From: Clostridia bacterium
GTDB lineage: Bacteria; Bacillota; Clostridia; TANB77; CAG-508
Assembly: GCA_017404025.1 (NCBI GenBank)
Contig: JAFRDD010000141.1
Span: forward strand, 19,243 to 83,242
Direction: 5' to 3'
DNA length: 64,000 nt
Position 1 is the stretch's first letter; every line of letters begins with the position of its first letter. The position numbers were made by a program, and so were the translations under genes. The notes beneath the pieces are model-generated. The model worked only from the letters and a program-made list of their open reading frames with translations. It did not search any database and had not been told where the DNA came from. Of the stretch, positions 19,552 to 31,496 are shown in pieces.

Positions 19552-19613
19552 AGTTTTTTATGTACATTTTTATTTTTGTTTTCATAATATATATTATAAA
19601 AGGAGGAATAAAA

Positions 19614-19979
19614 ATGTTTGGTAGATATAAAAAATGTTACTGTATGAACAATAATATGGATAATTCTAATTGTGAAAATAATATGATTGAAAAACAATGT
19701 GATGATAATTGTTCATGTAAAGAAAATAGCTATAACAATAATTGCAGTTGTGGATTTGATGAAGAATATGGAGTATTTCCAGAAAACCCCAGCTTAGGTC
19801 AAAGTTATGTACCAATCCAATATATGGATAAAACTTTTAAACCATGTGTCGGATTAAAAATGGGAACTATATTTCCAGAATTAGTTAGCCCATATAGACC
19901 AGGTCAATCTATGGAAGAAATAGAATATTTAAGAATGACAAATAAAGTAGGAGAGGGGTGCAACAAATGCAGGAATTAG
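19614..19979 (+). CDS. cotJA: Spore coat-associated protein CotJA
   Basis: YVPIQY...GTIFPEL motif. RBS aaaggagg 6 nt upstream. First gene of the cotJ operon. Confidence 0.55.
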   Translation: MFGRYKKCYCMNNNMDNSNCENNMIEKQCDDNCSCKENSYNNNCSCGFDEEYGVFPENPSLGQSYVPIQYMDKTFKPCVGLKMGTIFPELVSPYRPGQSMEEIEYLRMTNKVGEGCNKCRN

Positions 19980-20254
19980 AAGAAAATAGAAGAGACTGTA
20001 ACAATGATAATACAAGAAAAGAAATGGCAGATAAAATAAAATGTTTAGACTTTGCAATTACTGAACTTGCTTTATATTTGGATACACATCCTGATGATGA
20101 AAAAGCATTATGTTTACACAATAGATATTGCAAAGAAGTAAAAGATTTAAAAGATAAATATCAGAAAGTATATGGCCCACTTACAATTAATTACCCATGT
20201 AATAAGTGGAGATGGATTGAAGAACCATGGCCATGGGAAAGGGGGAATTATTAA
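19958..20254 (+). CDS. cotJB: Spore coat protein CotJB
   Basis: LDTHPDDEKAL motif. Size and position between cotJA and cotJC fit. Confidence 0.7.
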   Translation: MQQMQELEENRRDCNNDNTRKEMADKIKCLDFAITELALYLDTHPDDEKALCLHNRYCKEVKDLKDKYQKVYGPLTINYPCNKWRWIEEPWPWERGNY

Positions 20255-20568
20255 TGTGGACTTATAATAAAATGCTTCAATATCCAATTAATATAAAATG
20301 TACAGATCCAAAACTTGCAAAAGTAATTATTTCTCAATATGGAGGCCCTGATGGAGAACTTGCCGCATCTCTTAGATATTTATCACAAAGATTCGGCATG
20401 CCTGATCAAAATGCAAAGGCAATATTAAATGATATAGGGACTGAAGAATTAGCACATTTAGAAATGGTAGGTACAATAGTTCACCAATTAACTAAAGATG
20501 CAAGTATAGAGGAAATAGAAAAAGCAGGTTTGGCGCCCTACTATACAGACCATGGTGTGTGTCTGTAA
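20254..20568 (+). CDS. cotJC: cotJC 5' portion (Mn-catalase-family spore coat protein CotJC), truncated after ...APYYTDHG by the insertion. A stop codon is supplied by the inserted element.
   Basis: MWTYNKMLQYP...QYGGPDGELAASLRYL...GTEELAHLEM match the CotJC/Mn-catalase N-terminus. The ORF ends exactly where homologues continue. Confidence 0.8.
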   Translation: MWTYNKMLQYPINIKCTDPKLAKVIISQYGGPDGELAASLRYLSQRFGMPDQNAKAILNDIGTEELAHLEMVGTIVHQLTKDASIEEIEKAGLAPYYTDHGVCL

Positions 20569-20586
20569 TATATCCTAATCCTGCTT

Positions 20587-22146
20587 TTAAAAATTCCAAT
20601 GAATTATTACATCTTGGGATTTTTTAAATTTATCTCCAATTTCAATATAATCAATAAATGAATTAACAATATTGTAATCTAGTTCTTTAAAGTCTTTAAA
20701 TTTATTAATGATTCTTTCTTTTTGCTCTTGAATGAATTTACTATTTAATTCTTTTTCTTTTAGATTTGCTAGGCTTATTTCTATTTGATTAAGCTCATTT
20801 TGTTTAGCTTGTTTATCAGATAGGAAAGAGGAGTTTAAATCATTGAATGAACTTTCATCAATCTTGCCATTTGCTTTGTTTAGATATAGTTCTTTAATTG
20901 CTTTATTAATATTTTCCATATCTTGTGTAAGTATAGTTTTCTTTTCTTCAAGTAACTTTAATTTATTTTGATTTTCTTGAATAACAAATAAATCATCTGA
21001 AATGTTGTCAAAGTCATAATAAGCTAAAATCTTTTCTTTGATTTTTTCTGTTAACAAATTCTTAAGATTTTCGTATCCAATAGAGTGGGGAGTGCATGTT
21101 CCATAAAGCTTTTTAGAAGCTTTGCAAGAAAAATAAATATAGCCTCTGTCATTTTTGCATTTGTATAATTTATTGCCACAGTCTTTGCAAACAAGTTTAT
21201 TAGCAAATAGATGAACTTCGCCATTTTTACATGATCTAGTTTTACTTTTAAAAATTTCTTGTACTTTGTAAAACTGCTCCTTTTTTATGATAGGCTCATG
21301 TGTATTTGGAACAATTATTCTTTTAGATTTAGGCTGTGAAACTCTTTTTTTAGACTTATAGCTTATTTTTCTATTATAGCCTTGTACCATATTGCCAATA
21401 TAGATTTCATTTTTAAGAATTTTCGTAATAGTTGATTCAGTCCAATATTCGATATTTTTACCTTGATTTTTGAAGTTAAGACCTTTAGACAGCTTATATT
21501 TAGTAGGTGTTAAAATACCATCTTCATTTAGTTTTTCAGCAATTTTAGTAACTCCATTTCCTTGTTCATATAGGTTATAAATTAGCTTAACAACTTCAGC
21601 CGCTTCTTTATCAATTACAATTTTATTTTTGTTATGTTCATCTCTCATATAGCCATAGCACACAAAAGAGCCAATATGTAAGCCTTGCTGTCTTTTACTA
21701 TCAAAAGTTTTTCTAATGTTTTCAGATAAGTCTTCTAAGTACCATTCATTAACTAGTCCATTAATTTGCCTTGATTTTTTATTTCCTTTATCTAAAGTAT
21801 CAACATGATCAACCAAGCTTACAAATCGAATGTTCCATTCGATAAACTTGTTGTGCAAATACTTTTCTACAATTTCCATATCACGAGTAAATCTGCTTTG
21901 AGTTTTACAAAGTACAATGTCAAATTTATGCTGTTTTGCATCTCCTAAAAGCCTGTTAAACTCAGGACGTGCACTATCAATTCCAGAATAATCTTCATCA
22001 CAGTAAATGTTGTAAATATCTAAGTTATTTTCAATAGCATAGTTTATAAGCATAGACTTTTGATTTTGAATACTCTCACTCTCATCATTTTCATGAAGCT
22101 TGTCATCATCTTCACGAGATAGTCTACAATATATAGCAACTTTCAT
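20587..22146 (-). CDS. Large serine recombinase (resolvase catalytic domain, recombinase domain, zinc ribbon and coiled coil; SpoIVCA/TnpX/phiC31-Int class)
   Basis: MKVAIYCRLSREDD with the catalytic Ser. Cys-rich CKDCGNKL...C...C zinc ribbon. 519 aa. RBS ggaggaaac. Confidence 0.9.
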   Translation of the reverse strand: MKVAIYCRLSREDDDKLHENDESESIQNQKSMLINYAIENNLDIYNIYCDEDYSGIDSARPEFNRLLGDAKQHKFDIVLCKTQSRFTRDMEIVEKYLHNKFIEWNIRFVSLVDHVDTLDKGNKKSRQINGLVNEWYLEDLSENIRKTFDSKRQQGLHIGSFVCYGYMRDEHNKNKIVIDKEAAEVVKLIYNLYEQGNGVTKIAEKLNEDGILTPTKYKLSKGLNFKNQGKNIEYWTESTITKILKNEIYIGNMVQGYNRKISYKSKKRVSQPKSKRIIVPNTHEPIIKKEQFYKVQEIFKSKTRSCKNGEVHLFANKLVCKDCGNKLYKCKNDRGYIYFSCKASKKLYGTCTPHSIGYENLKNLLTEKIKEKILAYYDFDNISDDLFVIQENQNKLKLLEEKKTILTQDMENINKAIKELYLNKANGKIDESSFNDLNSSFLSDKQAKQNELNQIEISLANLKEKELNSKFIQEQKERIINKFKDFKELDYNIVNSFIDYIEIGDKFKKSQDVIIHWNF

Positions 22147-22236
22147 AAGTTTCCTCCAATCGTAAACTACCCATTTAGTACCAAGTAAATTATACATAAA
22201 CAAGTAGCTTTTTTCAATATTCTTATGGCTAATATA

Positions 22237-22380
22237 TTAGCTATTTCTTAGTGAATTGCAGCTTTTGGAAAATTCTGTAGCAATTAACCTATTTATAATT
22301 GCATTTACATATTTAGAAATCTCTTGTGTTTCCTTATTTTTGTACTTTTCAATAACATTGAAATAAACATTTTTACACAT
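22237..22380 (-). CDS. Small ORF (47 aa) upstream of and co-oriented with the recombinase. Candidate excisionase/RDF or regulator; speculative.
   Basis: Strong RBS aggagg 7 nt upstream of ATG. Not in the supplied ORF track (below the size cutoff). No recognisable motif. Confidence 0.25.
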   Translation of the reverse strand: MCKNVYFNVIEKYKNKETQEISKYVNAIINRLIATEFSKSCNSLRNS

Positions 22381-22564
22381 AAAAAAGCCTCCTAAATAAA
22401 TGATATTCACAGGGGCTTGTATTTTTGCGAAAAATAAAAAGCCCTCAAAATTTGGCTTTTCTCGTAAAAAATTATATTGTTATTTTGAAAATCATTAGAT
22501 GATTTTATGAATTTATTATATAGAGGGAAAGGGGAGTTGTCAAGGGAAAAACAAAAATTAATTA

Positions 22565-22593
22565 TTGCAATTATTGGCATTTTAATATATAAT
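22565..22593 (+). promoter_or_regulatory. Sigma-A-type promoter TTGCAA-17-TATAAT for the NUDIX operon; first of two near-identical copies inside the element
   Basis: AATTATTGCAATTATTGGCATTTTAATATATAAT. Second copy at 23964-23992. Confidence 0.5.
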
Positions 22594-22639
22594 TCTAATA
22601 TAAAAAAGTATTAGTTTTTGGAATGTTTGGGAGGTTTAT

Positions 22640-23215
22640 ATGGAATATTTAGATATTGTAGATGAAAATAATGAATTTACAGGAATTGTAGAAGAAAGAA
22701 GAAAAGCCCATGAAAAGAATCTATGGCATAGACATGTGACAAGTTGGATAATGAATACAAAAGGAGAGATTTTACTTCAAAAAAGAGCAGCATCTAAACC
22801 TAGAAATCCAAATAAATGGGCAAAAACAGGTGGACATGTAGATAGTGGAGAAAACGAAACAGATGCAATTCAAAGGGAGATAAAAGAAGAATTAGGAATT
22901 GATGTGCCAAGAGAACAGGCTAAGGTTGTTAGTATTTACAAAAGTACAAATCCTGAAAATAGATTTTTTGGTTATAATTATATGTTTGTTATAGATTACA
23001 AAATAGAAGATTTTGTTTTGCAAAAAGAAGAAGTGTCAGAAGTAAAATATTTTAGTATTGAACAATTGGAAGAAATAAAACAAAAAAATGATCCTAATTA
23101 TAATTTTACTGCATGGAAAGATGAGCAATTTCAAAGTGAAATGGAATTATTGAAAAGTAAGAGAAGTGAAATTTTAAAAGAATGTGGTGAAAATTATGAA
23201 AAACTTAACAAGTAA
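22640..23215 (+). CDS. NUDIX hydrolase
   Basis: Nudix box GGHVDSGENETDAIQREIKEELGI (GX5EX7REUXEEXGU). Confidence 0.8.
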   Translation: MEYLDIVDENNEFTGIVEERRKAHEKNLWHRHVTSWIMNTKGEILLQKRAASKPRNPNKWAKTGGHVDSGENETDAIQREIKEELGIDVPREQAKVVSIYKSTNPENRFFGYNYMFVIDYKIEDFVLQKEEVSEVKYFSIEQLEEIKQKNDPNYNFTAWKDEQFQSEMELLKSKRSEILKECGENYEKLNK

Positions 23216-23903
23216 ACAAAAAAAGATATTAATAGCTATTTTTATAGTATTATTTATTATAGGGCTAGGGGGAGGAATATTTTTAGGTATTTCAAGTAAA
23301 AACAACGAAAATGAAAACAAGAACAATATCGAGAATACAAGTGAAAAATCAGGTAATGAAGGTCAAAAAAGTAAAAAAACATTAACTCCAGAAATGGAAG
23401 AATTAAAAAGTAAAATAGAACAAGATGAAGCAGGGTATGGTAATAAGTACCAAAAATTTGAATATTGTAAAAACGTTTATAAAAGAAAGCCAGACAGAAT
23501 CTATTTTAAAGATCCAAGTAAAAACGGTTTCTTTGTATTTGAAAAAGACGATGAAGACTTTGAACATTTATTAGAGGTAACAGAAGATAGAATGGCATAT
23601 ACAACTATGGAAGATTATAATTTATATGCTTTTACACCAGATTCAATAAATACAATGATGAAATCAAAAGATACTTATATAATCTTTGATTATGATAATA
23701 ACAATTTGTCAGAAGGAGATAGCGAATATAATAAAGACATAATTTTTAGATTCAATCAAAATACTAGATTATATAGATTAGTAACATATTTAGCATATTT
23801 TAAAGAATTAATTACTAGAGAGAATTTAGGCAAAGATGAATTTGCAAATAACACAAATACAACAGGTTTTAGATATATGATGTATGGAGACTTTATGGAT
23901 TAG
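23196..23903 (+). CDS. Membrane-anchored hypothetical protein (N-terminal TM, then an extracytoplasmic domain)
   Basis: ILIAIFIVLFIIGLGGGIFLGI anchor. Overlaps the NUDIX stop, so translationally coupled. Confidence 0.5.
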   Translation: MKNLTSKQKKILIAIFIVLFIIGLGGGIFLGISSKNNENENKNNIENTSEKSGNEGQKSKKTLTPEMEELKSKIEQDEAGYGNKYQKFEYCKNVYKRKPDRIYFKDPSKNGFFVFEKDDEDFEHLLEVTEDRMAYTTMEDYNLYAFTPDSINTMMKSKDTYIIFDYDNNNLSEGDSEYNKDIIFRFNQNTRLYRLVTYLAYFKELITRENLGKDEFANNTNTTGFRYMMYGDFMD

Positions 23904-23963
23904 GAGTAAATGATGGAAAAGATATAAAAATACATAAATAAGTACTAAAAGGGTAAATAATTA

Positions 23964-23992
23964 TTGCAATTATTTGCCCTTTAATATATAAT
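23964..23992 (+). promoter_or_regulatory. Second copy of the element-internal TTGCAA-17-TATAAT promoter
   Basis: AATTATTGCAATTATTTGCCCTTTAATATATAAT, near-identical to 22565-22593. Confidence 0.5.
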
Positions 23993-24204
23993 GCAAATAT
24001 AGGAGAAGTAAGACAAAATATAGGTTTAAGATAAAATTTTAAAAATGAATTATTGGAAAAATTCAACATAAAAGTTCTAGTTATAGGCATTAATAATTCA
24101 TAAAAAGTAAAGGAAGAAGAATTTATAGAATATAAAAGAGAAATTTTATGAAAAAATAATAAAATTCTTTAAAAAGATTTTTCATATTAATTAGGGGGAA
24201 AAAT

Positions 24205-26136
24205 ATGAGCGAACCACTAAAAATAAGTATTTTAGATAGAACAGATACAGAAGAATTTAAACAATTAACTGAATTGTTAAAAGAATTTACTATTGAAACA
24301 TATATAGAAAATAAACCAGAATATGCAACATTAAAAAATGTAATGGAATATGTTAATATAGCTATACAAGAGTTTAATGGAAAAATAACTCCATCTATGC
24401 TATCACCACAGGATATTGAACAAATAAAAAAGGATATTGATTCTCAAATTAGTATGGCTAAAGAATTAATTGATAAAAAACAAACAGAAAACATTCAAAC
24501 AAGATATTATATTATGAAAGATGGTGGAGATAAACTAGTTGCTTTTCAACAAGGACAGATTGCCAAAGGAAAGGAAAAAGGTAGAATTGAAGGGTGGAGT
24601 AATTTAGCATACACAGACCCAGAGTATAGAGGCGAGGGGCAAGTTATTAATAGTAAAGGGATAATGCAAAAAGGAAGAAATAGTGAAATATTATTTGAAG
24701 ACTTAAGAAATTGGTTTGAAGAAAATGGAGTAAATTACGAAAGAACTTGTACAGGCGTAAATATGATTAGAAATATAAAAACTTATATAAGATTGTTTGG
24801 ATATTTACCATTTAGCAAGAATGATAAGAATATTTTTTTAGAAAAATCTAAAGAACATAAAATTGATGCAAAAACATTAAATAAAGTAATTAAATTATAT
24901 GAACAGCATAAAGGAAGAACAGAACAAAAAAATAAAGATGAAATAATTGCTGAAATAGATAGTATAACAGAATTTGCAAGTCTAACTGATGATCAAAAAA
25001 GCGGATTAGTACAATGTTTCTTAAAGGAAGATGAAAAAAAATTTGAAATACCAAATGACAAATTAAAAATGTTAAATGATTTTATACAAGAAAATTTAAA
25101 AAACAGAAAAAATAGTACTAATTATTATTTATTATATAGAATTTCTGGAATGATGACTAAAGATTTTAAAATCAAAGATAGGCATTTTAATTCTATAACC
25201 AAACCATCAACAATGGAAGAAACCAAAGAAATTGCATTACAATTTTTTAAAGGATTAGATCAAGAATTGTATGAAAAAATTAAAGGAATTGTTGAAGGTA
25301 ATAGTAGATTCTCATTCAATATGTATATGTTAGATGAAAATGAAGATTTTTCAAAAACAGATAATGATGGGATGCCTATACATAGTAAAATACCAATGGT
25401 ATTAGAAAAAAATGGAAAAACAGGAGTTTTTGTGCCATGTAAAGGTACTTTAGAAGATATTTATTTGCTAGTACATGAATTATCTCATACTTTTGATTTA
25501 CCACCAAATGATAATCCAACTAGATATGTGCTAGGTGAAATAACACCATACTGTTTTGAGGCTATGTTAAGTCAATATTTAGTAGAAAATGGGATTGCTA
25601 CTGAAGAACAAGTTGTAGGTATAGAAGAACGACAGATTATAGGTCATTATAATGATGGAGTAGAAACATTTGCAAAGTTCAAATTAATGAAAATAAAAGA
25701 AGAAAAGGGAGATATAACTCAAGATGATATTAAACAATTACAAAAACGTTATGGGGTAAGTCATAATCATATAAGATATATTTTAGATAGAATGGTAAAT
25801 TCAGCACCTTTTATTGAGGTTAAAGCTAGATATATGACTGCACAATTAATTTACCCACATTTTATGGAACAATATGGACAGGATCCACAAAATGCAATAA
25901 TGACATTGAAAGAATATTTTGAACAAATAAAATCAAACAATTTTATAGGTAGTTTACAAACATTAGGTATTGAACCGAAAGAAGATAGTATTCAAGATTT
26001 AATAAAAACTGCAAATACTAGATTTGATAATTTAGGAAAAACAAAACAATTTTCTACACAACAGATAGACAAAGCAACTATTAAAGCAACTACCAAAATA
26101 AAAGATGAAGCTAGAGAACAAATTGAAAGAGATTAA
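24205..26136 (+). CDS. Fusion protein: N-terminal GNAT-like acetyltransferase fold plus C-terminal HExxH zinc-metallopeptidase-like domain (VHELSHTF). Family not assignable without a search.
   Basis: KLVAFQQGQI...YRGEGQ...NWFEENGVNYERTC resembles a GNAT core. A single HELSH motif with a downstream Glu. Confidence 0.4.
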   Translation: MSEPLKISILDRTDTEEFKQLTELLKEFTIETYIENKPEYATLKNVMEYVNIAIQEFNGKITPSMLSPQDIEQIKKDIDSQISMAKELIDKKQTENIQTRYYIMKDGGDKLVAFQQGQIAKGKEKGRIEGWSNLAYTDPEYRGEGQVINSKGIMQKGRNSEILFEDLRNWFEENGVNYERTCTGVNMIRNIKTYIRLFGYLPFSKNDKNIFLEKSKEHKIDAKTLNKVIKLYEQHKGRTEQKNKDEIIAEIDSITEFASLTDDQKSGLVQCFLKEDEKKFEIPNDKLKMLNDFIQENLKNRKNSTNYYLLYRISGMMTKDFKIKDRHFNSITKPSTMEETKEIALQFFKGLDQELYEKIKGIVEGNSRFSFNMYMLDENEDFSKTDNDGMPIHSKIPMVLEKNGKTGVFVPCKGTLEDIYLLVHELSHTFDLPPNDNPTRYVLGEITPYCFEAMLSQYLVENGIATEEQVVGIEERQIIGHYNDGVETFAKFKLMKIKEEKGDITQDDIKQLQKRYGVSHNHIRYILDRMVNSAPFIEVKARYMTAQLIYPHFMEQYGQDPQNAIMTLKEYFEQIKSNNFIGSLQTLGIEPKEDSIQDLIKTANTRFDNLGKTKQFSTQQIDKATIKATTKIKDEAREQIERD

Positions 26137-26229
26137 CAACAAATTGAACAAGAGGAGTTAAAAAAATAATAATATGTTAGGAAAATTATTTGAATGTGAA
26201 GATGAATAAAAGAAAAGAGGTTGATAATT

Positions 26230-26802
26230 ATGAAATATTTTAAAAAATTAGTAGGAGAAAGAATATACTTATCTCCAAAAGGAGCATCTGATGAAGAAAT
26301 AGAAAAATTCACTAAATGGATGAATGATTTTCAAGTATCTGATTATATAGGAAGAAGTGGAGAAATAACAACATTACTTGGAGAAAAGGAATGGCTTGAA
26401 AATTCAGCAAAAAATATTGAAAGTAGAAGTTTTAATATTATTGATTTAAAAAATGATAAGCTAGTTGGAACAATAGGACTAGAACGATTTAATTGGATTG
26501 CAAGAAGTGCTGTACTTGGAATCTTTATAGGAGATGAAGATTACAGAAATAATGGATATGGAACAGAAGCAATAAAGCTCTTATTAGAATATGGTTTTAA
26601 ATATTTGAATTTACATAGTATAAGATTAGATCTTATTTCTGTAAACGAAAGAGCTCATAAATGTTATTTAAAATGTGGATTTAAAGATGCTGGTAGAAGT
26701 AGAGAAGAAATATTTTTAAATGGAAAATATTATGATAAATTACATATGGATATACTTGAATATGAATTTGAAGGAAGTTATATAAAAAATAAGAATGTAT
26801 AA
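26230..26802 (+). CDS. GNAT family N-acetyltransferase (RimJ/RimL-like)
   Basis: GIFIGDEDYRNNGYGTEAIKLLLEYGF acetyl-CoA-binding motif. Confidence 0.75.
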   Translation: MKYFKKLVGERIYLSPKGASDEEIEKFTKWMNDFQVSDYIGRSGEITTLLGEKEWLENSAKNIESRSFNIIDLKNDKLVGTIGLERFNWIARSAVLGIFIGDEDYRNNGYGTEAIKLLLEYGFKYLNLHSIRLDLISVNERAHKCYLKCGFKDAGRSREEIFLNGKYYDKLHMDILEYEFEGSYIKNKNV

Positions 26803-27057
26803 TTTAAAAAGCGAGTTTAGTGAGATTAATAGGCAGGATAAGCATAATGGTACATTATTCGATAATACATAAAAGGCAAGCCTTTTAGTAGCAGTATTGA
26901 GCAAAAACATGCAGTAAATAAAATGCACGAATTCACTTAGTGAACTTTTTGCTAAATATATGTAAAAATTATTAATTAGAAATTTTTGTAAATAATTTCA
27001 TAAAATGTTACATTTTTTTATAATTATATGTTATAATAGTAATAGAAGGTGGTTCGA

Positions 27058-27405
27058 ATGAATGAAAAAGTATATACTTTAAAAGAAATAATAGATATAT
27101 GTACTCCTATCTTAAAAAAATATAATATAAAAAAGGCATACATTTTTGGTTCATATGCTAGAGGAGAGGCAACAGAAAAATCTGATATTGATATTATGAT
27201 CAAAACAACAGGTTCAAATATACTTAGTTTATTAAATTTAAGCAATTTAGAAATAGAGTTAGAAGAAAAACTAGAAAAAGTTGTTGATATAGTAATAGAA
27301 GAAACATATACAGATGAAATAAATAATGAAGATATTTATGGTACATTAGCCAAAAAGATGTTCTATAAGGAAGTGGTAAAAGATAGGAGTGTTGTTTATG
27401 ACTAA
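27058..27405 (+). CDS. mntA: Minimal nucleotidyltransferase (MNT) antitoxin of a HEPN/MNT pair
   Basis: GSYARGEATEKSDIDIMI, i.e. the GSx10DxD nucleotidyltransferase motif. Confidence 0.75.
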   Translation: MNEKVYTLKEIIDICTPILKKYNIKKAYIFGSYARGEATEKSDIDIMIKTTGSNILSLLNLSNLEIELEEKLEKVVDIVIEETYTDEINNEDIYGTLAKKMFYKEVVKDRSVVYD

Positions 27406-27769
27406 TTTAGATAGAAAAACTACAATATTATTACATATACAAAAATATTGTAAAGAAATTGAAGAAAATTTGAATTTTTTTGGAAGTAATTTTAATACTT
27501 TCGAAACAAATAATATATTTAGAGATTCAATATCAATGAAAATATTTCAAATAGGGGAATTGGCAAAAGAATTAGATAAAGTTGATAAAGAATACATAAA
27601 TGAGACAAAAAGTAACATTCCTTGGCAAAGCATAATTAGGATGAGAGAAAGATTTGCACATCATTATGGAGAAATGGATTTGAAAATGATATTTAATACA
27701 GCAATTAATGATATACCTGTTTTAAAAAATTTATTAGAAAAAGAATTAGCTAAATTGATGGAAGATTAA
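27398..27769 (+). CDS. hepT: HepT/DUF86 HEPN-domain toxin (RNase)
   Basis: RMRERFAHHYG is the Rx4-6H HEPN motif. The start overlaps the MNT stop (ATGACTAA), typical TA coupling. Confidence 0.75.
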   Translation: MTNLDRKTTILLHIQKYCKEIEENLNFFGSNFNTFETNNIFRDSISMKIFQIGELAKELDKVDKEYINETKSNIPWQSIIRMRERFAHHYGEMDLKMIFNTAINDIPVLKNLLEKELAKLMED

Positions 27770-27995
27770 TTAATAAATATTTTACCCTCTACTACAGTTA
27801 CAGTGGTAGTAAGACGGGAGCCTAAAAGTTTAGGAGAGTTCATAGTAGCTCTCCTTTATTAGTTAGTAAAATATTTAATTATTTGATTATATATAAAATA
27901 TAGTTGTCGAGGAATACTTGACAACTCATTGGAGAAGCGGTACTAAACGGGTAGTTCAATAAAATATTTCTAGGATAGTTTATAATTCCACACCA

Positions 27996-28310
27996 CATGG
28001 GGTTGATGTATATCCTTCATCTGCTGCCGGAGTTCCATTTACAGCAGCATATATTGCAGCGAAGGGAGACCCAATAGCAAACTTACAAGAAGATTTAGCA
28101 GCAGAACAAAAAGCAAGAGCAACTTATGAAAAATTAATAGATTTATGCCGTGATAATCCAGAAGTAATAGATCCACTTAGATATTTAAGACAAAGAGAAA
28201 TAGTCCATTTCCAAAGATTTGGAGAAGCACTTAGAGGAGTTCAAGATAAATTATCTGAAAAGAAATTTTTTATGAATGATATGAAACCATGTGACATGGA
28301 AAATAATTAA
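27996..28310 (+). CDS. cotJC: cotJC 3' portion (VDVYPSSAAGVPFTAAYIAAKGDPIANL...ARATYEKLIDL...REIVHFQRFGEAL...), in frame with the 5' portion after precise excision
   Basis: Mn-catalase/CotJC C-terminal motifs. No start codon or RBS of its own. The region is not called in the ORF track. Confidence 0.75.
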   Translation, partial: HGVDVYPSSAAGVPFTAAYIAAKGDPIANLQEDLAAEQKARATYEKLIDLCRDNPEVIDPLRYLRQREIVHFQRFGEALRGVQDKLSEKKFFMNDMKPCDMENN

Positions 28311-28412
28311 AAAGCTTTAGACTGCTACCCAAAAGCAGTCTTTTAATTTGATTATAAATCTTTGAATAAAATTACTAATGCAAGAATAAAGATAATTATT
28401 AGGTGAGAAGGT

Positions 28413-28937
28413 ATGAATAATAAGAAAATAAGAAACTATCAAATTTTTAGTATAGTATTTACATTTCTATTAGGAAGCTTTTTGCATTTTACATATGAAC
28501 TGTCTGGGAAAAATTATTTAGTTGCAACATTTTCAGCAATCAATGAAAGTGTATGGGAACATTTGAAAATATTATATTTTCCTATGTTATTAACTATAAT
28601 AATAGGATGTTTCTATTTAGGAAAAGAATATTCTAATTTTTTATGTTCAAAAACAATAGGAACTATTATAGCTATGATATTTATAGTTGTATTTTTCTAT
28701 ACATATTTTGGAATATTAGGGAAAAACATAGCTTTTATAGATATATTATCGTTTTTTATAGCTGATATACTTGGAGAAGTTATAGCGTATATTAGTATAA
28801 TTAACAAATACAAATGTAATAGGTTAATATCAATATTGGTTTTGATATTAATATCAATTCTATTTATAATTTTTACATTTTTTTCGCCTAGAATAGGACT
28901 TTTTAAAGATCCGGTAACAGGAACTTACGGAATATAG
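28413..28937 (+). CDS. Polytopic membrane protein of unknown function (5 TM)
   Basis: Hydrophobicity pattern only. Confidence 0.5.
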   Translation: MNNKKIRNYQIFSIVFTFLLGSFLHFTYELSGKNYLVATFSAINESVWEHLKILYFPMLLTIIIGCFYLGKEYSNFLCSKTIGTIIAMIFIVVFFYTYFGILGKNIAFIDILSFFIADILGEVIAYISIINKYKCNRLISILVLILISILFIIFTFFSPRIGLFKDPVTGTYGI

Positions 28938-28968: not shown

Positions 28969-28997
28969 TTGACAATTTCCATAAATTGGTTTATAAT
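28969..28997 (+). promoter_or_regulatory. Consensus sigma-A promoter TTGACA-17-TATAAT upstream of the first adhesin gene
   Basis: ttgacaatttccataaattggtttataat. Confidence 0.6.
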
Positions 28998-29036
28998 AAA
29001 AAACATAGTGTGAGAAAACAAGGAGGAAAAAATAAT

Positions 29037-31496
29037 ATGAGAAAAAAACTATTAGCAAGTGCTTTAATTATGGTTTTGTTATCAGCAAATTTTATAGAAA
29101 TAGCTATAGCAAAAACAAGTGATTTTACAAGAGAAAAAAGAAATAAATTATTTAGTAATGTAAGTATAATTGACGATAATACTACTGTAGACAGCAAATA
29201 TGATGCAGTAAGTATTCCGGTACCATATGATAATATAACAATATGCGATTATGGAACAACTAACAAAAAAAGTTTACCTAAAATTACAGGTGATAGCCAA
29301 GAACCAGATGGATCAGGAGCTGTACAATTAGATGATAATGGAAAAAATGCAGAAGATCCTAAAGGATATACAAGTTCTTGGTGGGTAAAAGTCGACACAG
29401 AAAATGATGATGAACAATGGCTATATTGGAACTTAACACTTGATTCAGATTCAAGTGAAGGCAAAGAAAAAACAATTAACGATGTTGCAACAATTATATA
29501 TAAAGGCGGATTAGAATATAAAGGAAAAGTATATGATATTAGATTAGATATAGAAGAAATTTCTGCTGTATTAAGTCATCCAGATTCTTCAAATTATGAT
29601 TGTGCATCACCAGAAATACAATTTGCAGTTGGAAAAAGAGACTATCAATCAGGAAATTTAGCTGATATTGATACATATACTGGAGAAATTAATCCTCAAG
29701 TAGGAGTTAGACCATATAAAGGTTCTAATCAAAAAGCAAATATAAAAGTAAAATATTATGCTTTAGATGGAGATAAAGCAATTCCATTTGCAGGTGTATT
29801 TGGAATAACTGATATAGACCTAAACCAAGGTGTATATATTGAAGATTTTGAAGTATCAAAAGCAACAGCATTTATGTACCCAAGAAATACTGAAAATGGA
29901 ATCGGTATAGACAGAATGTATTATAACAACTTAAAAAATGGTGCATATATATATTATTACTATGGAAGCGATGCCAACTCTGCAAAAGCTGAAGATGGTG
30001 GAGATCGTACTGAACATGCTGATGTTTATGGATTGATAGATGCAAAAGATAGTATGGATTTAACATTCACATGGGATAGACTTAAAGCATATTCAAGTAT
30101 TATATTTATGAATGATGTTTTAAAAACAGCAGACTATAAAGTAGAACACTATTTTGAAAATGATAATGGAGAATATGAACATAATAAAATTTATGATGAA
30201 TTTGTATCAGGCAAACAAGTTGGAGATCCAGTAGAAGCTGATAAATTAAAAAATATACCAAATGGATATGCATATAATGCAGAATATACAAATAATCAAA
30301 CAAACAGTATGGGAACAAAACCAGCTAATAAAGGAATAGTACAATCAGATGGTTCATTAGTGTTAAAATTATATTACAATAAAAAAGCAATACCAGTAAC
30401 ACCAACACCAGTAACACCAACACCGGTAACACCAACACCAGTAACACCAACGCCAGTAACACCAACACCAGTGACACCAACACCAGTAACACCAACACCA
30501 GTAACACCAACACCAGTAACACCAACACCGGTAACACCAACACCAGTAACACCAACACCAGTAACACCAACACCAGTAACACCAACACCGGTAACACCAA
30601 CACCAGTAACACCAACGCCAGTGACACCAACACCGGTAACACCAGCACCAGAAACTGGAAAATATAAAGTTGAACATTATTTACAACAAGAGGATGGATC
30701 ATATAAATTAGAATTAACTGAACCAGAAAAAACAGCTAAAGTTGGCTCAGAAATAAAAAATAAATCTAGAGAATTCCCAGGATATTTAGAAAATATTACA
30801 CATAAAGATAGAGTAAATTCAGTTAAAATAATAAAAAATCAAACAGTAACATTAAAATATTTTTATGATATGGTTAAAAAACCAAAATACAGAATAGACA
30901 CAGAAGTTATAAACGGAACAATAGACCCTGATGTTACTGATATACCAGAAGGCAAGACAGAAGAAATAAAATACAACCCAAATGATGGATTTGAATTAAA
31001 ATCAATAACTGTTGATGGAGTAGAAGTAGATACTACAAAATATCCAATTAGCTATATTTTTAAGGATATAAACGCTAATCATAAAATCAAAGTTGTATAT
31101 GAAAAGAAAGAAAATCCACATACATATAGAATAGATACAGAAGTTATAAATGGAGATATAACACCTCCTATTAAAGAAATAGTAGAAGGAGATACAAAAA
31201 CAATAATTTATACTCCAAATCCTGGATATGTATTAAAATCAGTTACTGTAGATGGAGTAGAAGTGGATACAAATCAATATCCTAGTGCATATACATTCTC
31301 AAATATAAATCAAGATCATAGAATAAAAGTTGTATATGAAAAAGAAGAAAAACCAATAACACCAAAAGTAGAAGAACCACAAGCACCAACAATATTACCT
31401 AAAACAGGTATAAACAATACAATATTTATAGTAATATTAGGAGCTGCAGTAGCAGTTGCAATAATAACAGGAAGAAGATATTTTAAAATAAAATAA
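29037..31496 (+). CDS. Sortase-anchored surface protein (LPKTG): signal peptide, about 430-aa N-terminal domain, (PVTPT)n linker, MucBP-like domain and two Ig-like repeats
   Basis: Signal peptide MRKKLLASALIMVLLSANFIEIAIA. C-terminal LPKTG plus hydrophobic segment plus RRYFKIK. 30392-30650 encode about 17 PVTPT units. Confidence 0.8.
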   Translation: MRKKLLASALIMVLLSANFIEIAIAKTSDFTREKRNKLFSNVSIIDDNTTVDSKYDAVSIPVPYDNITICDYGTTNKKSLPKITGDSQEPDGSGAVQLDDNGKNAEDPKGYTSSWWVKVDTENDDEQWLYWNLTLDSDSSEGKEKTINDVATIIYKGGLEYKGKVYDIRLDIEEISAVLSHPDSSNYDCASPEIQFAVGKRDYQSGNLADIDTYTGEINPQVGVRPYKGSNQKANIKVKYYALDGDKAIPFAGVFGITDIDLNQGVYIEDFEVSKATAFMYPRNTENGIGIDRMYYNNLKNGAYIYYYYGSDANSAKAEDGGDRTEHADVYGLIDAKDSMDLTFTWDRLKAYSSIIFMNDVLKTADYKVEHYFENDNGEYEHNKIYDEFVSGKQVGDPVEADKLKNIPNGYAYNAEYTNNQTNSMGTKPANKGIVQSDGSLVLKLYYNKKAIPVTPTPVTPTPVTPTPVTPTPVTPTPVTPTPVTPTPVTPTPVTPTPVTPTPVTPTPVTPTPVTPTPVTPTPVTPTPVTPTPVTPAPETGKYKVEHYLQQEDGSYKLELTEPEKTAKVGSEIKNKSREFPGYLENITHKDRVNSVKIIKNQTVTLKYFYDMVKKPKYRIDTEVINGTIDPDVTDIPEGKTEEIKYNPNDGFELKSITVDGVEVDTTKYPISYIFKDINANHKIKVVYEKKENPHTYRIDTEVINGDITPPIKEIVEGDTKTIIYTPNPGYVLKSVTVDGVEVDTNQYPSAYTFSNINQDHRIKVVYEKEEKPITPKVEEPQAPTILPKTGINNTIFIVILGAAVAVAIITGRRYFKIK

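Follow-up and report, generated by a model that had tools for sequence, protein, structure and literature searches.

In a 64,000-nucleotide stretch of a Clostridia bacterium genome (contig JAFRDD010000141.1 of assembly GCA_017404025.1, hereafter the window) the spore-coat gene cotJC is split by an intervening element of 7.4 kb that encodes a large serine recombinase (LSR). The break is an insertion, not a natural division of the gene. The element has conserved attachment (att) sites at its ends and belongs to a family that enters cotJC at a single codon and moves between species. On balance it is probable that the island is excised in the sporulating mother cell and that cotJC is rebuilt there, the timing being assigned by analogy with known elements of this kind.

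An insertion within cotJC

The open reading frames (ORFs) and Pfam matches confirm the cotJA-cotJB-cotJC operon of the original prediction, an analysis of the sequence that preceded this work (Table 1). As it had proposed, cotJC is cut at nt 20555, after codon G101, where the coding sequence reads ...APYYTDHG; in the integrated state this 5′ part is extended by the element-encoded residues VCL up to a stop codon at 20566-20568. The second half of the gene, also as proposed, has neither a start codon nor a ribosome-binding site (RBS), its coding sequence resuming at 28001. The pentanucleotide CATGG is common to both breakpoints (20551-20555 and 27996-28000), and joining 20555 to 28001 across it, an excision performed in silico, produces a single in-frame ORF. 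The predicted restoration of one CotJC therefore holds, with a length of 203 aa instead of about 205. The joined product matches PF05067 (Mn_catalase) over residues 1-184 (E=1e-55, 189 bits) and is 94-95% identical to intact CotJC proteins.

Related genomes, scanned with one genome per species, carry an uninterrupted cotJC at the exact site in all of 80 loci, where the DNA alignment runs straight through the junction and CotJC is 82-95% identical at the protein level. Searched with the joined CotJC, the protein database gives 7,435 matches at E<=1e-60, of which the best 120 are 193-220 aa long. No fewer than 11 contigs, from seven or more samples, share the identical truncated CotJC of 104 aa, recombinase and gene order, and the insertion-bearing contigs include a deposited metagenome-assembled genome (protein MBQ3415650.1). 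Samples with the element are represented by ERZ28019060, ERZ28019071, ERZ28654015, SRR12529036 and SRR12529378. Because all 80 relatives are contiguous across the site and the same junctions recur in independent assemblies of several samples, a natural two-gene cotJC or an assembly artefact is excluded for practical purposes. The one argument for such an origin is the raw appearance of two fragments, and against it stand also the missing start codon and RBS of the 3′ part and the conservation of the element ends in 28 elements, so that we regard it as vanishingly improbable.

Table 1. Positions in the window of the cotJ operon, the intervening element and their sequence features.
Feature	Position	Strand	Remarks
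Putative σK-type mother-cell promoter of cotJ operon	19564..19591	+	AC-N17-CATAATATA; pattern match
cotJA	19614..19979	+	PF11007 CotJA, E=1.6e-12
cotJB	19967..20254	+	95 aa from ATG, also by gene callers; GTG at 19958 is an alternative start; PF12652 CotJB, E=5.6e-27
cotJC 5′ part, codons 1-101	20254..20555	+	Matches residues 1-102 of intact CotJC proteins
attL	20528..20575	+	Host half-site, CA crossover (20551-20552), element arm TGGTGTGTGTCTGTAATATATCC (20553-20575)
Intervening element, 7,445 bp	20556..28000	.	Conventional limits: starts behind the attL CATGG, includes the attR CATGG
LSR, 519 aa, TnpX/TndX-like	20587..22146	-	Pfam Resolvase, Recombinase, Zn_ribbon_recom, DUF4368
σA-like promoter of recombinase (predicted function)	22189..22217	-	TTGAAA-17-TATAAT; 11/12 consensus positions
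Conserved 47-aa ORF, candidate recombination directionality factor	22237..22380	-	MCKNVYFNVIEK...; directly upstream of recombinase
Conserved box upstream of small ORF	22388..22425	-	AAAATACAAGCCCCTGTGAATATCATTTATTTAGGAGG; conserved across family; contains SpoIIID-like ATACAAGC
Hairpin then T-run, terminator-like	22430..22461	-	Fold -10 kcal/mol; would insulate small ORF from upstream transcription
NUDIX hydrolase	22640..23215	+	PF00293, E=1.4e-20
Protein with N-terminal hydrophobic segment	23184..23903	+	No significant family match
643-aa protein with HELSH (HExxH) motif	24205..26136	+	No library match
GNAT acetyltransferase	26221..26802	+	PF13302, E=1.9e-18
MNT (27049-27405) and HepT (27389-27769) toxin-antitoxin pair, attR-proximal	27049..27769	+	PF01909/PF18765, PF01934
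attR	27973..28025	+	Element arm GGATAGTTTATAATTCCACACCA (27973-27995), CA crossover (27996-27997), host half-site TGGGGTTGATGTATATCC
cotJC 3′ part, codons 102-203 and stop	28001..28312	+

Element ends and attachment sites

The element has a GC content of 26.0%, compared with 27.6% for the whole window, and its DNA-level similarity to other family members is confined to 20557-22484. The element arm of attL is conserved in all members of the family, in which the attL-side arm reads TGGGGTGGGTTTGGAATATATCC... and the attR-side arm ...TAGGATAGTTTACAAACACACACCA. The reconstructed attP consists of 23-bp imperfect inverted repeats around a central CA, with 18 of the 23 positions matching in the family consensus. 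In the window the inner 6 bp form a perfect repeat (ACACCA-CA-TGGTGT), which places the centre of the dyad on CA and not, as first proposed, on TGG. The predicted 60-mer junctions are CTACTATACAGACCATGGGGTTGATGTATATCC for attB and ATAATTCCACACCACATGGTGTGTGTCTGTAAT for attP. Two related loci, L093 and L178 (L numbers denote related loci or contigs, P numbers database proteins, and WIN the window copy), have CATGG at attL but CACGG at attR, so that the exchange must take place at or 5′ of the CA.

In the right half-sites an outer motif, TATATCC, lies 16 nt from the CA in attP and 11 nt from it in attB, while the left attB half-site matches this motif weakly. A difference of this size agrees with a structural model for serine integrases, which locates the zinc-ribbon motif 5 bp further inward in attB than in attP (Rutherford, 2013; PMC3783163). 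Taken together, the conserved ends, the attP dyad and the 5-bp shift very likely reflect a working LSR system, and as read from these sites integration is by attP × attB recombination at the CA inside codon His100.

The recombinase and its small partner ORF

Profile searches with the 519-aa protein returned the three LSR domains anticipated in the original prediction and DUF4368 besides. The nucleophile is the serine of YCRLSRED (S10), the RLS motif of which aligns with TnpX. Among solved structures the TnpX catalytic domain comes closest (E=8.5e-11), the identity with TndX is 31% across the full length, and the best NCBIfam match is XisF, at a score far below the cut-off of that family. There is no close relative among 50,697 phage records. 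The stop codon of the gene is 31 nt from the attL junction, a little more than the 20 bp given earlier. Its ratio of non-synonymous to synonymous substitution rates (dN/dS) is 0.04-0.12, indicative of strong purifying selection, and by these measures the recombinase is intact and under selection. A clade of 45%-identical recombinases (L146-L160) was considered as an informative relative and dropped, as no sporulation gene is visibly split there; the host is a high-GC member of the Clostridia, where they occur as solitary genes without obvious cargo, flanked by serine dehydratase genes and by a sensor kinase/response regulator pair.

The TG-TATAAT -10 element of the putative recombinase promoter keeps its place in most of the elements examined. 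Members of the window-type subfamily have a good -35 (TTGAAA or TTGTCA); the -35 of the main family would fall inside the small ORF. In the window (22143-22240) and in the equivalent region of all family members a 7-bp inverted repeat, AAACTAC ... GTAGTTT, brackets this -10. The same region, in the window and its relatives, contains a short hairpin with the RBS in its loop, and most family members have a TTGTACAA palindrome after the -10. These structures are suggestive of an operator or of control at the level of translation.

Directly upstream of the recombinase is a small ORF of 42-47 aa that is recognizable in 25-26 of the 27 other complete elements described below, plus L175 and L178; the match in L126 is weak (E=0.03) and none was found in L118. 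It has an RBS, is called by gene finders and shows a dN/dS of 0.15-0.53 against the main family. The 47-aa protein of the window has no match in any family library searched. It is the likeliest recombination directionality factor (RDF) of the element.

The conserved box in front of this ORF includes the core ATACAAGC, which agrees with the Bacillus subtilis SpoIIID site TAGGACAAGC at seven of ten positions. The window shows no enrichment of RRACAAGC octamers (8 observed against 6.7 expected), and the SpoIIID-like core, being statistically unremarkable, is a lead only. An equivalent of the terminator-like hairpin upstream of the box is found in most relatives. A perfect TTGACA-17-TATAAT at 22515-22543 (-) faces the small ORF but lies upstream of the hairpin, and is back to back with a TTGCAA-17-TATAAT at 22565-22593 (+) for the NUDIX gene; both fall in the non-conserved cargo part of the element.

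A family of mobile elements specific to cotJC

A scan of metagenomes identified about 65 human-gut contigs with LSRs 75-86% identical to that of the window. Where the flanking sequence is long enough, nearly all of them have cotJC broken at this very codon, and the core is CA. Twenty-eight complete elements could be delimited, including the window copy, and these range from 2,915 to 10,638 bp with common ends. The module common to nearly all is the recombinase with the 42-47-aa ORF directly upstream. In 25 of the 28 the region downstream of the recombinase has three small genes, for the toxin ParE, for an antitoxin-like product and for a product of 70 aa, and in two a Fic protein takes the place of the ParE module. 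The window copy has nothing between the recombinase and attL and carries its MNT/HepT pair at the opposite end, a position occupied in its nearest relatives by MNT/HepT (L175) or ToxN (L178). Every element thus carries a toxin-type module. The smallest elements, of 2.9 kb, make up nine of the 28, come from two host species and have no cargo. The larger ones include a Mob_Pre relaxase in nine of the 28 (PF01076, E=8e-45) and RepL in five.

The divergence of recombinases and hosts disagrees in both directions, and it is for this reason that the elements are taken to move between species. Between L096 and L102 the synonymous divergence (dS) is 0.18 for the recombinase and 1.27 for cotJC, and between L084 and L105 it is 0.71 and 0.06, respectively. 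Similarly, the recombinases of the window-type subfamily are 92-94% identical and the pyruvate kinases of the hosts 58% (WIN against L178). Dating of the insertion by co-divergence of recombinase and host was dropped, as a Mantel r of 0.38 is outweighed by the gross discordance in dS. The presence of Mob_Pre and RepL in relatives, combined with this horizontal mobility, means that excision is not solely a terminal event of the mother cell, at least in those relatives. In make-up the family appears closest to the Tn4451-type integrative mobilizable elements, more so than to prophages.

Further insertions in the cotJ operon

At least three further recombinase families target other sites of the operon. 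A second, unrelated serine-recombinase element is found in the same cotJC at DIGTEE|LAHLE (residue ~62-65) in L082, L086, L088, L090, L097, L103, L104, L108-L110, L112, L113, L118 and L123. Its recombinase, of ~520-535 aa and starting MQ..YAIYLRKSRED..., is 22-25% identical to that of the window. As the two elements sit in the same cotJC, two excisions would be needed to rebuild the gene in those genomes. Truncated CotJC proteins of this kind, 61-74 aa long, are present in the protein database (P0154, P0162 and P0163). L143 and L144 have a 1-nt frameshift at residues 61/62 of cotJC, exactly the second insertion site, which could be the scar of an imprecise excision or a sequencing error.

A third break follows ...EDLAAEQKAR (residue ~136-140) in L108 (compared with L109/L110 of the same host), L134 and L143. 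It is represented by P0153, P0155, P0157, P0160 and P0165, and P0153, a truncated form of 136 aa, occurs on 21 contigs. Recombinase genes lie a few kb from this break (L134 657-2144 and 19-588; L108 5-622). The fourth site is in the last six codons of cotJB, where L175 (2826-10000) has an element of ~7.1 kb with a 531-aa serine recombinase and the core TGGCCTT. This element parts cotJC from the operon promoter, and L175 carries a window-type element in cotJC as well. L107 had been taken for an intact cotJC together with an element; it is most simply an assembly chimera that joins an uninterrupted cotJC (to GDPIANL) to the interior of a family-1 element at AAATTTAAA, from which it follows that its sample contains both the intact and the interrupted allele.

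These insertions suggest a wider proposal, offered tentatively and more probably wrong in some part than right as a whole. In a clade of uncultured Clostridia from gut and rumen, the cotJ operon may be a hotspot for at least four unrelated serine-recombinase families, with one site at the 3′ end of cotJB and three in cotJC. Some of these would be cargo-less, developmentally excised ‘DNA introns’ of 2.9 kb, removed in the mother cell by means of a new family of 42-47-aa RDFs with a SpoIIID-like box in the promoter and kept in the germline by toxin-antitoxin modules. The element of the window would then be a cargo-carrying member.

Proposed excision in the mother cell

By analogy with B. subtilis and Clostridioides difficile, the spore-coat operon cotJ would be expressed in the mother cell. 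A -10 element of the CATATAAT type, ~15-20 nt before the RBS, is common upstream of cotJA in related loci, as judged by eye on 40 of 74 sequences, and AC-N15-18-CATA is found there in 37 of the 74. The mother-cell consensus used here is that of a C. difficile study, in which cotJC-like genes are σK-dependent (PMC3789822). The original prediction had placed cotJ in the mother cell under σE; the operon is of mother-cell type, but its promoter in the window looks σK-type and not σE-type.

In the mechanism that we favour, the LSR inserts the element into cotJC by attP × attB recombination at the CA of codon His100, and the integrated element truncates CotJC in the vegetative, germline chromosome. 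The recombinase would be made constitutively from its σA-like promoter. If the 47-aa protein acts as CD1234 and SprB do, it would turn the recombinase in the mother cell towards attL × attR, which would rejoin cotJC without a scar and allow its expression from the σK-type promoter. The excised circle would be lost with the mother cell while the forespore keeps the element. The MNT/HepT pair would penalize loss of the element in dividing cells, and occasional excision outside sporulation would account for horizontal spread. Here we infer that the small ORF is an RDF, which promoters serve which genes, that the toxin-antitoxin pair acts by addiction and, most of all, that excision is timed to sporulation.

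The persistence of the insertion is consistent with this mechanism. It is present on every contig with an identical CotJB and visible downstream sequence, and the exact joined CotJC is absent from a collection of 15 billion proteins. All nine distinct N-half alleles that are at least 96% identical to that of the window end at the insertion site, whereas the best intact CotJC is ~95% identical. Exact-sequence look-up and cluster mining found no empty-site allele of the same species above 95.5% identity. The interrupted state therefore looks fixed in the window lineage. At the same time CotJC ranks among the best-conserved proteins of the clade, with a dN/dS of 0.04-0.17 that is indicative of strong purifying selection. 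A fixed interruption of so strongly conserved a gene is to be expected if the gene is still rebuilt, and is harder to square with a permanent knock-out.

The alternative of such a knock-out is that the element is an ordinary mobile island. In that case cotJC would be a conserved landing site, inactivated for good, with rare excision that serves transfer and is uncoupled from sporulation, and with the loss of CotJC tolerated or compensated. This is a substantial possibility, though short of probable. The likeness of the recombinase to TnpX and TndX, the Mob_Pre relaxase and RepL in relatives, the clear horizontal spread and the want of an assignable sporulation promoter are all in keeping with it, and the toxin-antitoxin or Fic module of every element could fix a mildly costly insertion. 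Mutants of B. subtilis in cotJ have mild phenotypes, which counts in the same direction. It explains less well why, besides the fixed interruption of a conserved gene, double and triple interruptions persist in other hosts, why cargo-less elements of 2.9 kb without a relaxase persist in several samples, and why a single mother-cell operon should be the target of four or more recombinase families, the pattern of developmentally excised elements. Nor is there a cotJC paralogue within the 64-kb window.

Several further observations weigh against excision in the mother cell. No σE-, σK- or SpoIIID-dependent promoter can be assigned to the recombinase or the small ORF, and the promoter of the latter gives no convincing fit to the σE, σK, σF, σG or σA consensus. 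In most members the conserved box is without the invariant C of a mother-cell -10, and the box of the window also lacks the C in the AC of a -35. For the small ORF, dN/dS among members of the window-type subfamily is 0.63-1.30, a noisy value (~42 codons, low dS) that leaves selection unsupported there. The closest characterized recombinases, TnpX and TndX, are reported to work without an RDF and in transposition, not in development. If one of the products missing from the window copy, the ParE pair and the 70-aa ORF, is the RDF, this copy could be locked in. The attP junction of an excised circle is absent, with up to 5 mismatches allowed, from 80 metagenome loci and from viral contigs, and no locus or viral contig has a reconstituted attB of the window type. 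Toxin-antitoxin addiction or limited sampling (few cohorts) are alternative explanations of persistence. Finally, since the elements move horizontally, the intact halves of the gene are no proof of selection after the insertion.

It is also conceivable, if improbable, that the element acts as a reversible switch of the ‘active lysogeny’ type, in which excision and re-integration in a subpopulation would lead to coat heterogeneity or altered timing of sporulation, as described for the yin element of yabG. That element gives mixed populations that depend on growth phase (PMC10747680), recombinases of this class can run in both directions, and L107, though probably a chimera, hints at both states in one sample. 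However, the assemblies of all samples yielded neither an empty site nor a circular form in the window lineage, and the element of the window has no replication function.

Relationship to known elements

The sporulation genes known to be split by intervening elements are sigK (skin), spsM (SPβ), spoVFB (vfbin), spoVR (vrin), gerE (gin) and yabG (yin), and apart from gin these elements typically have prophage or prophage-like content. The cotJC element resembles them in that it splits a mother-cell gene, has its own recombinase near one end and, on precise excision in silico at a short core, gives back an ORF of the size of its orthologues. Unlike all but gin, it has no prophage gene content. 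The label ‘skin-like’ given to it originally is apt for an LSR element in a mother-cell gene with an exact in silico excision, and less so for an element that has no phage genes and a recombinase closest to TnpX/TndX.

The skinCd element of C. difficile, which is 14.6 kb in size, is a close parallel in organization. Its recombinase CD1231 is constitutive, with a σA promoter, and the small RDF CD1234, under σE and SpoIIID, confers mother-cell specificity (PMC5025042). Both elements place an LSR inside a mother-cell gene, with a σA-type recombinase promoter, a separate small ORF as the likely control point and a target ORF restored precisely on excision, for cotJC in silico. The cotJC element differs in its target (cotJC, not sigK), its size of 7.4 kb and its lack of phage-like genes. 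Its 47-aa ORF shows no similarity to CD1234, lies directly upstream of the recombinase, and is not demonstrably under σE or SpoIIID control. The gin element in gerE of Bacillus cereus ATCC 10987 is a non-prophage element of 28.6 kb with three recombinases that excises during sporulation (PMC5595907). It is likewise a serine-recombinase element without phage genes that splits a small mother-cell gene, whereas the cotJC element is smaller (7.4 kb, with a family minimum of 2.9 kb), has a single recombinase and an excision predicted from its sequence.

With Tn4451/Tn4453 and Tn5397 the family shares a TnpX/TndX-type recombinase with a DUF4368 tail and sizes of 3-10 kb, and its larger members have, like Tn4451, a Mob_Pre relaxase, which in Tn4451 is TnpZ. 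TnpX and TndX use a GA crossover and looser targets. In contrast, the cotJC family is strictly specific to one codon with a CA crossover, its att sites show the attP/attB asymmetry of phage-type integrases, and the window copy is without a relaxase. The heterocyst elements of Anabaena and Nostoc (such as the fdxN element with XisF) likewise use serine recombinases, and they leave genes whose products are required solely in a cell that has differentiated terminally; they occur in a different phylum and in different genes, and the sequence relationship is distant.

The original prediction flagged cotJC as a potentially new target, a claim that does not stand. A skin-like element in cotJC of Laceyella sacchari is named by Galperin et al. 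(2022; bioRxiv 10.1101/2022.02.25.481979), and a preprint on relatives of SPβ (10.1101/2021.11.22.469490) lists cotJC, gerE, yaaH and yhbH as integration targets, cotJC being frequent, with reference to Abe et al. (2013). In the accessible text of these sources the same gene appears in one-line mentions from Bacilli, without the site, the recombinase family, the att sites or the distribution. The searchable literature yielded no description of the present family, its att sites, the conserved small ORF or the 2.9-kb minimal forms, nor of its distribution in gut and rumen Clostridia or of several recombinase families targeting the cotJ operon.

If excision proves to be developmental, the gene of a spore-coat enzyme would join the short list of those rebuilt by programmed DNA rearrangement in spore-formers, and uncultured Clostridia of the gut and rumen would supply a case for the first time. 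The smallest elements of this sort known would then be of 2.9 kb, with a recombinase, an ORF of 42 aa and a toxin-antitoxin pair as their whole content, a compact system in which to study the link between recombinase directionality and cell fate. Whatever the timing, the family provides natural recombinase/attP/attB triples and a candidate small RDF, orthogonal to known integrases, that may serve as parts for genome engineering. That several recombinase families have converged on the same operon offers a clean setting in which to ask why mobile elements favour mother-cell genes as landing sites.

Cargo and neighbouring genes

The NUDIX hydrolase, GNAT acetyltransferase and MNT/HepT pair named in the original prediction are borne out by Pfam. 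The MNT and HepT genes overlap by 17 nt and both score above the Pfam cut-offs; the MntA and HepT scores in NCBIfam are below the curated cut-offs. The 643-aa protein had been described as a fusion of a GNAT and an HExxH peptidase, a label that was not confirmed, as no significant match was obtained in Pfam, NCBIfam, PHROGs, PADLOC or PDB sequences. PHROGs matches in the element are limited to the integrase, NUDIX hydrolase and acetyltransferase, with no phage structural, packaging or lysis genes.

Downstream of cotJC the window encodes a DUF6512 membrane protein (28413-28937) and an 836-aa surface protein (28986-31496, + strand). The latter contains ~28 tandem TPVTP repeats and has at its C-terminus an LPKTG sorting-signal-like motif followed by a hydrophobic tail.

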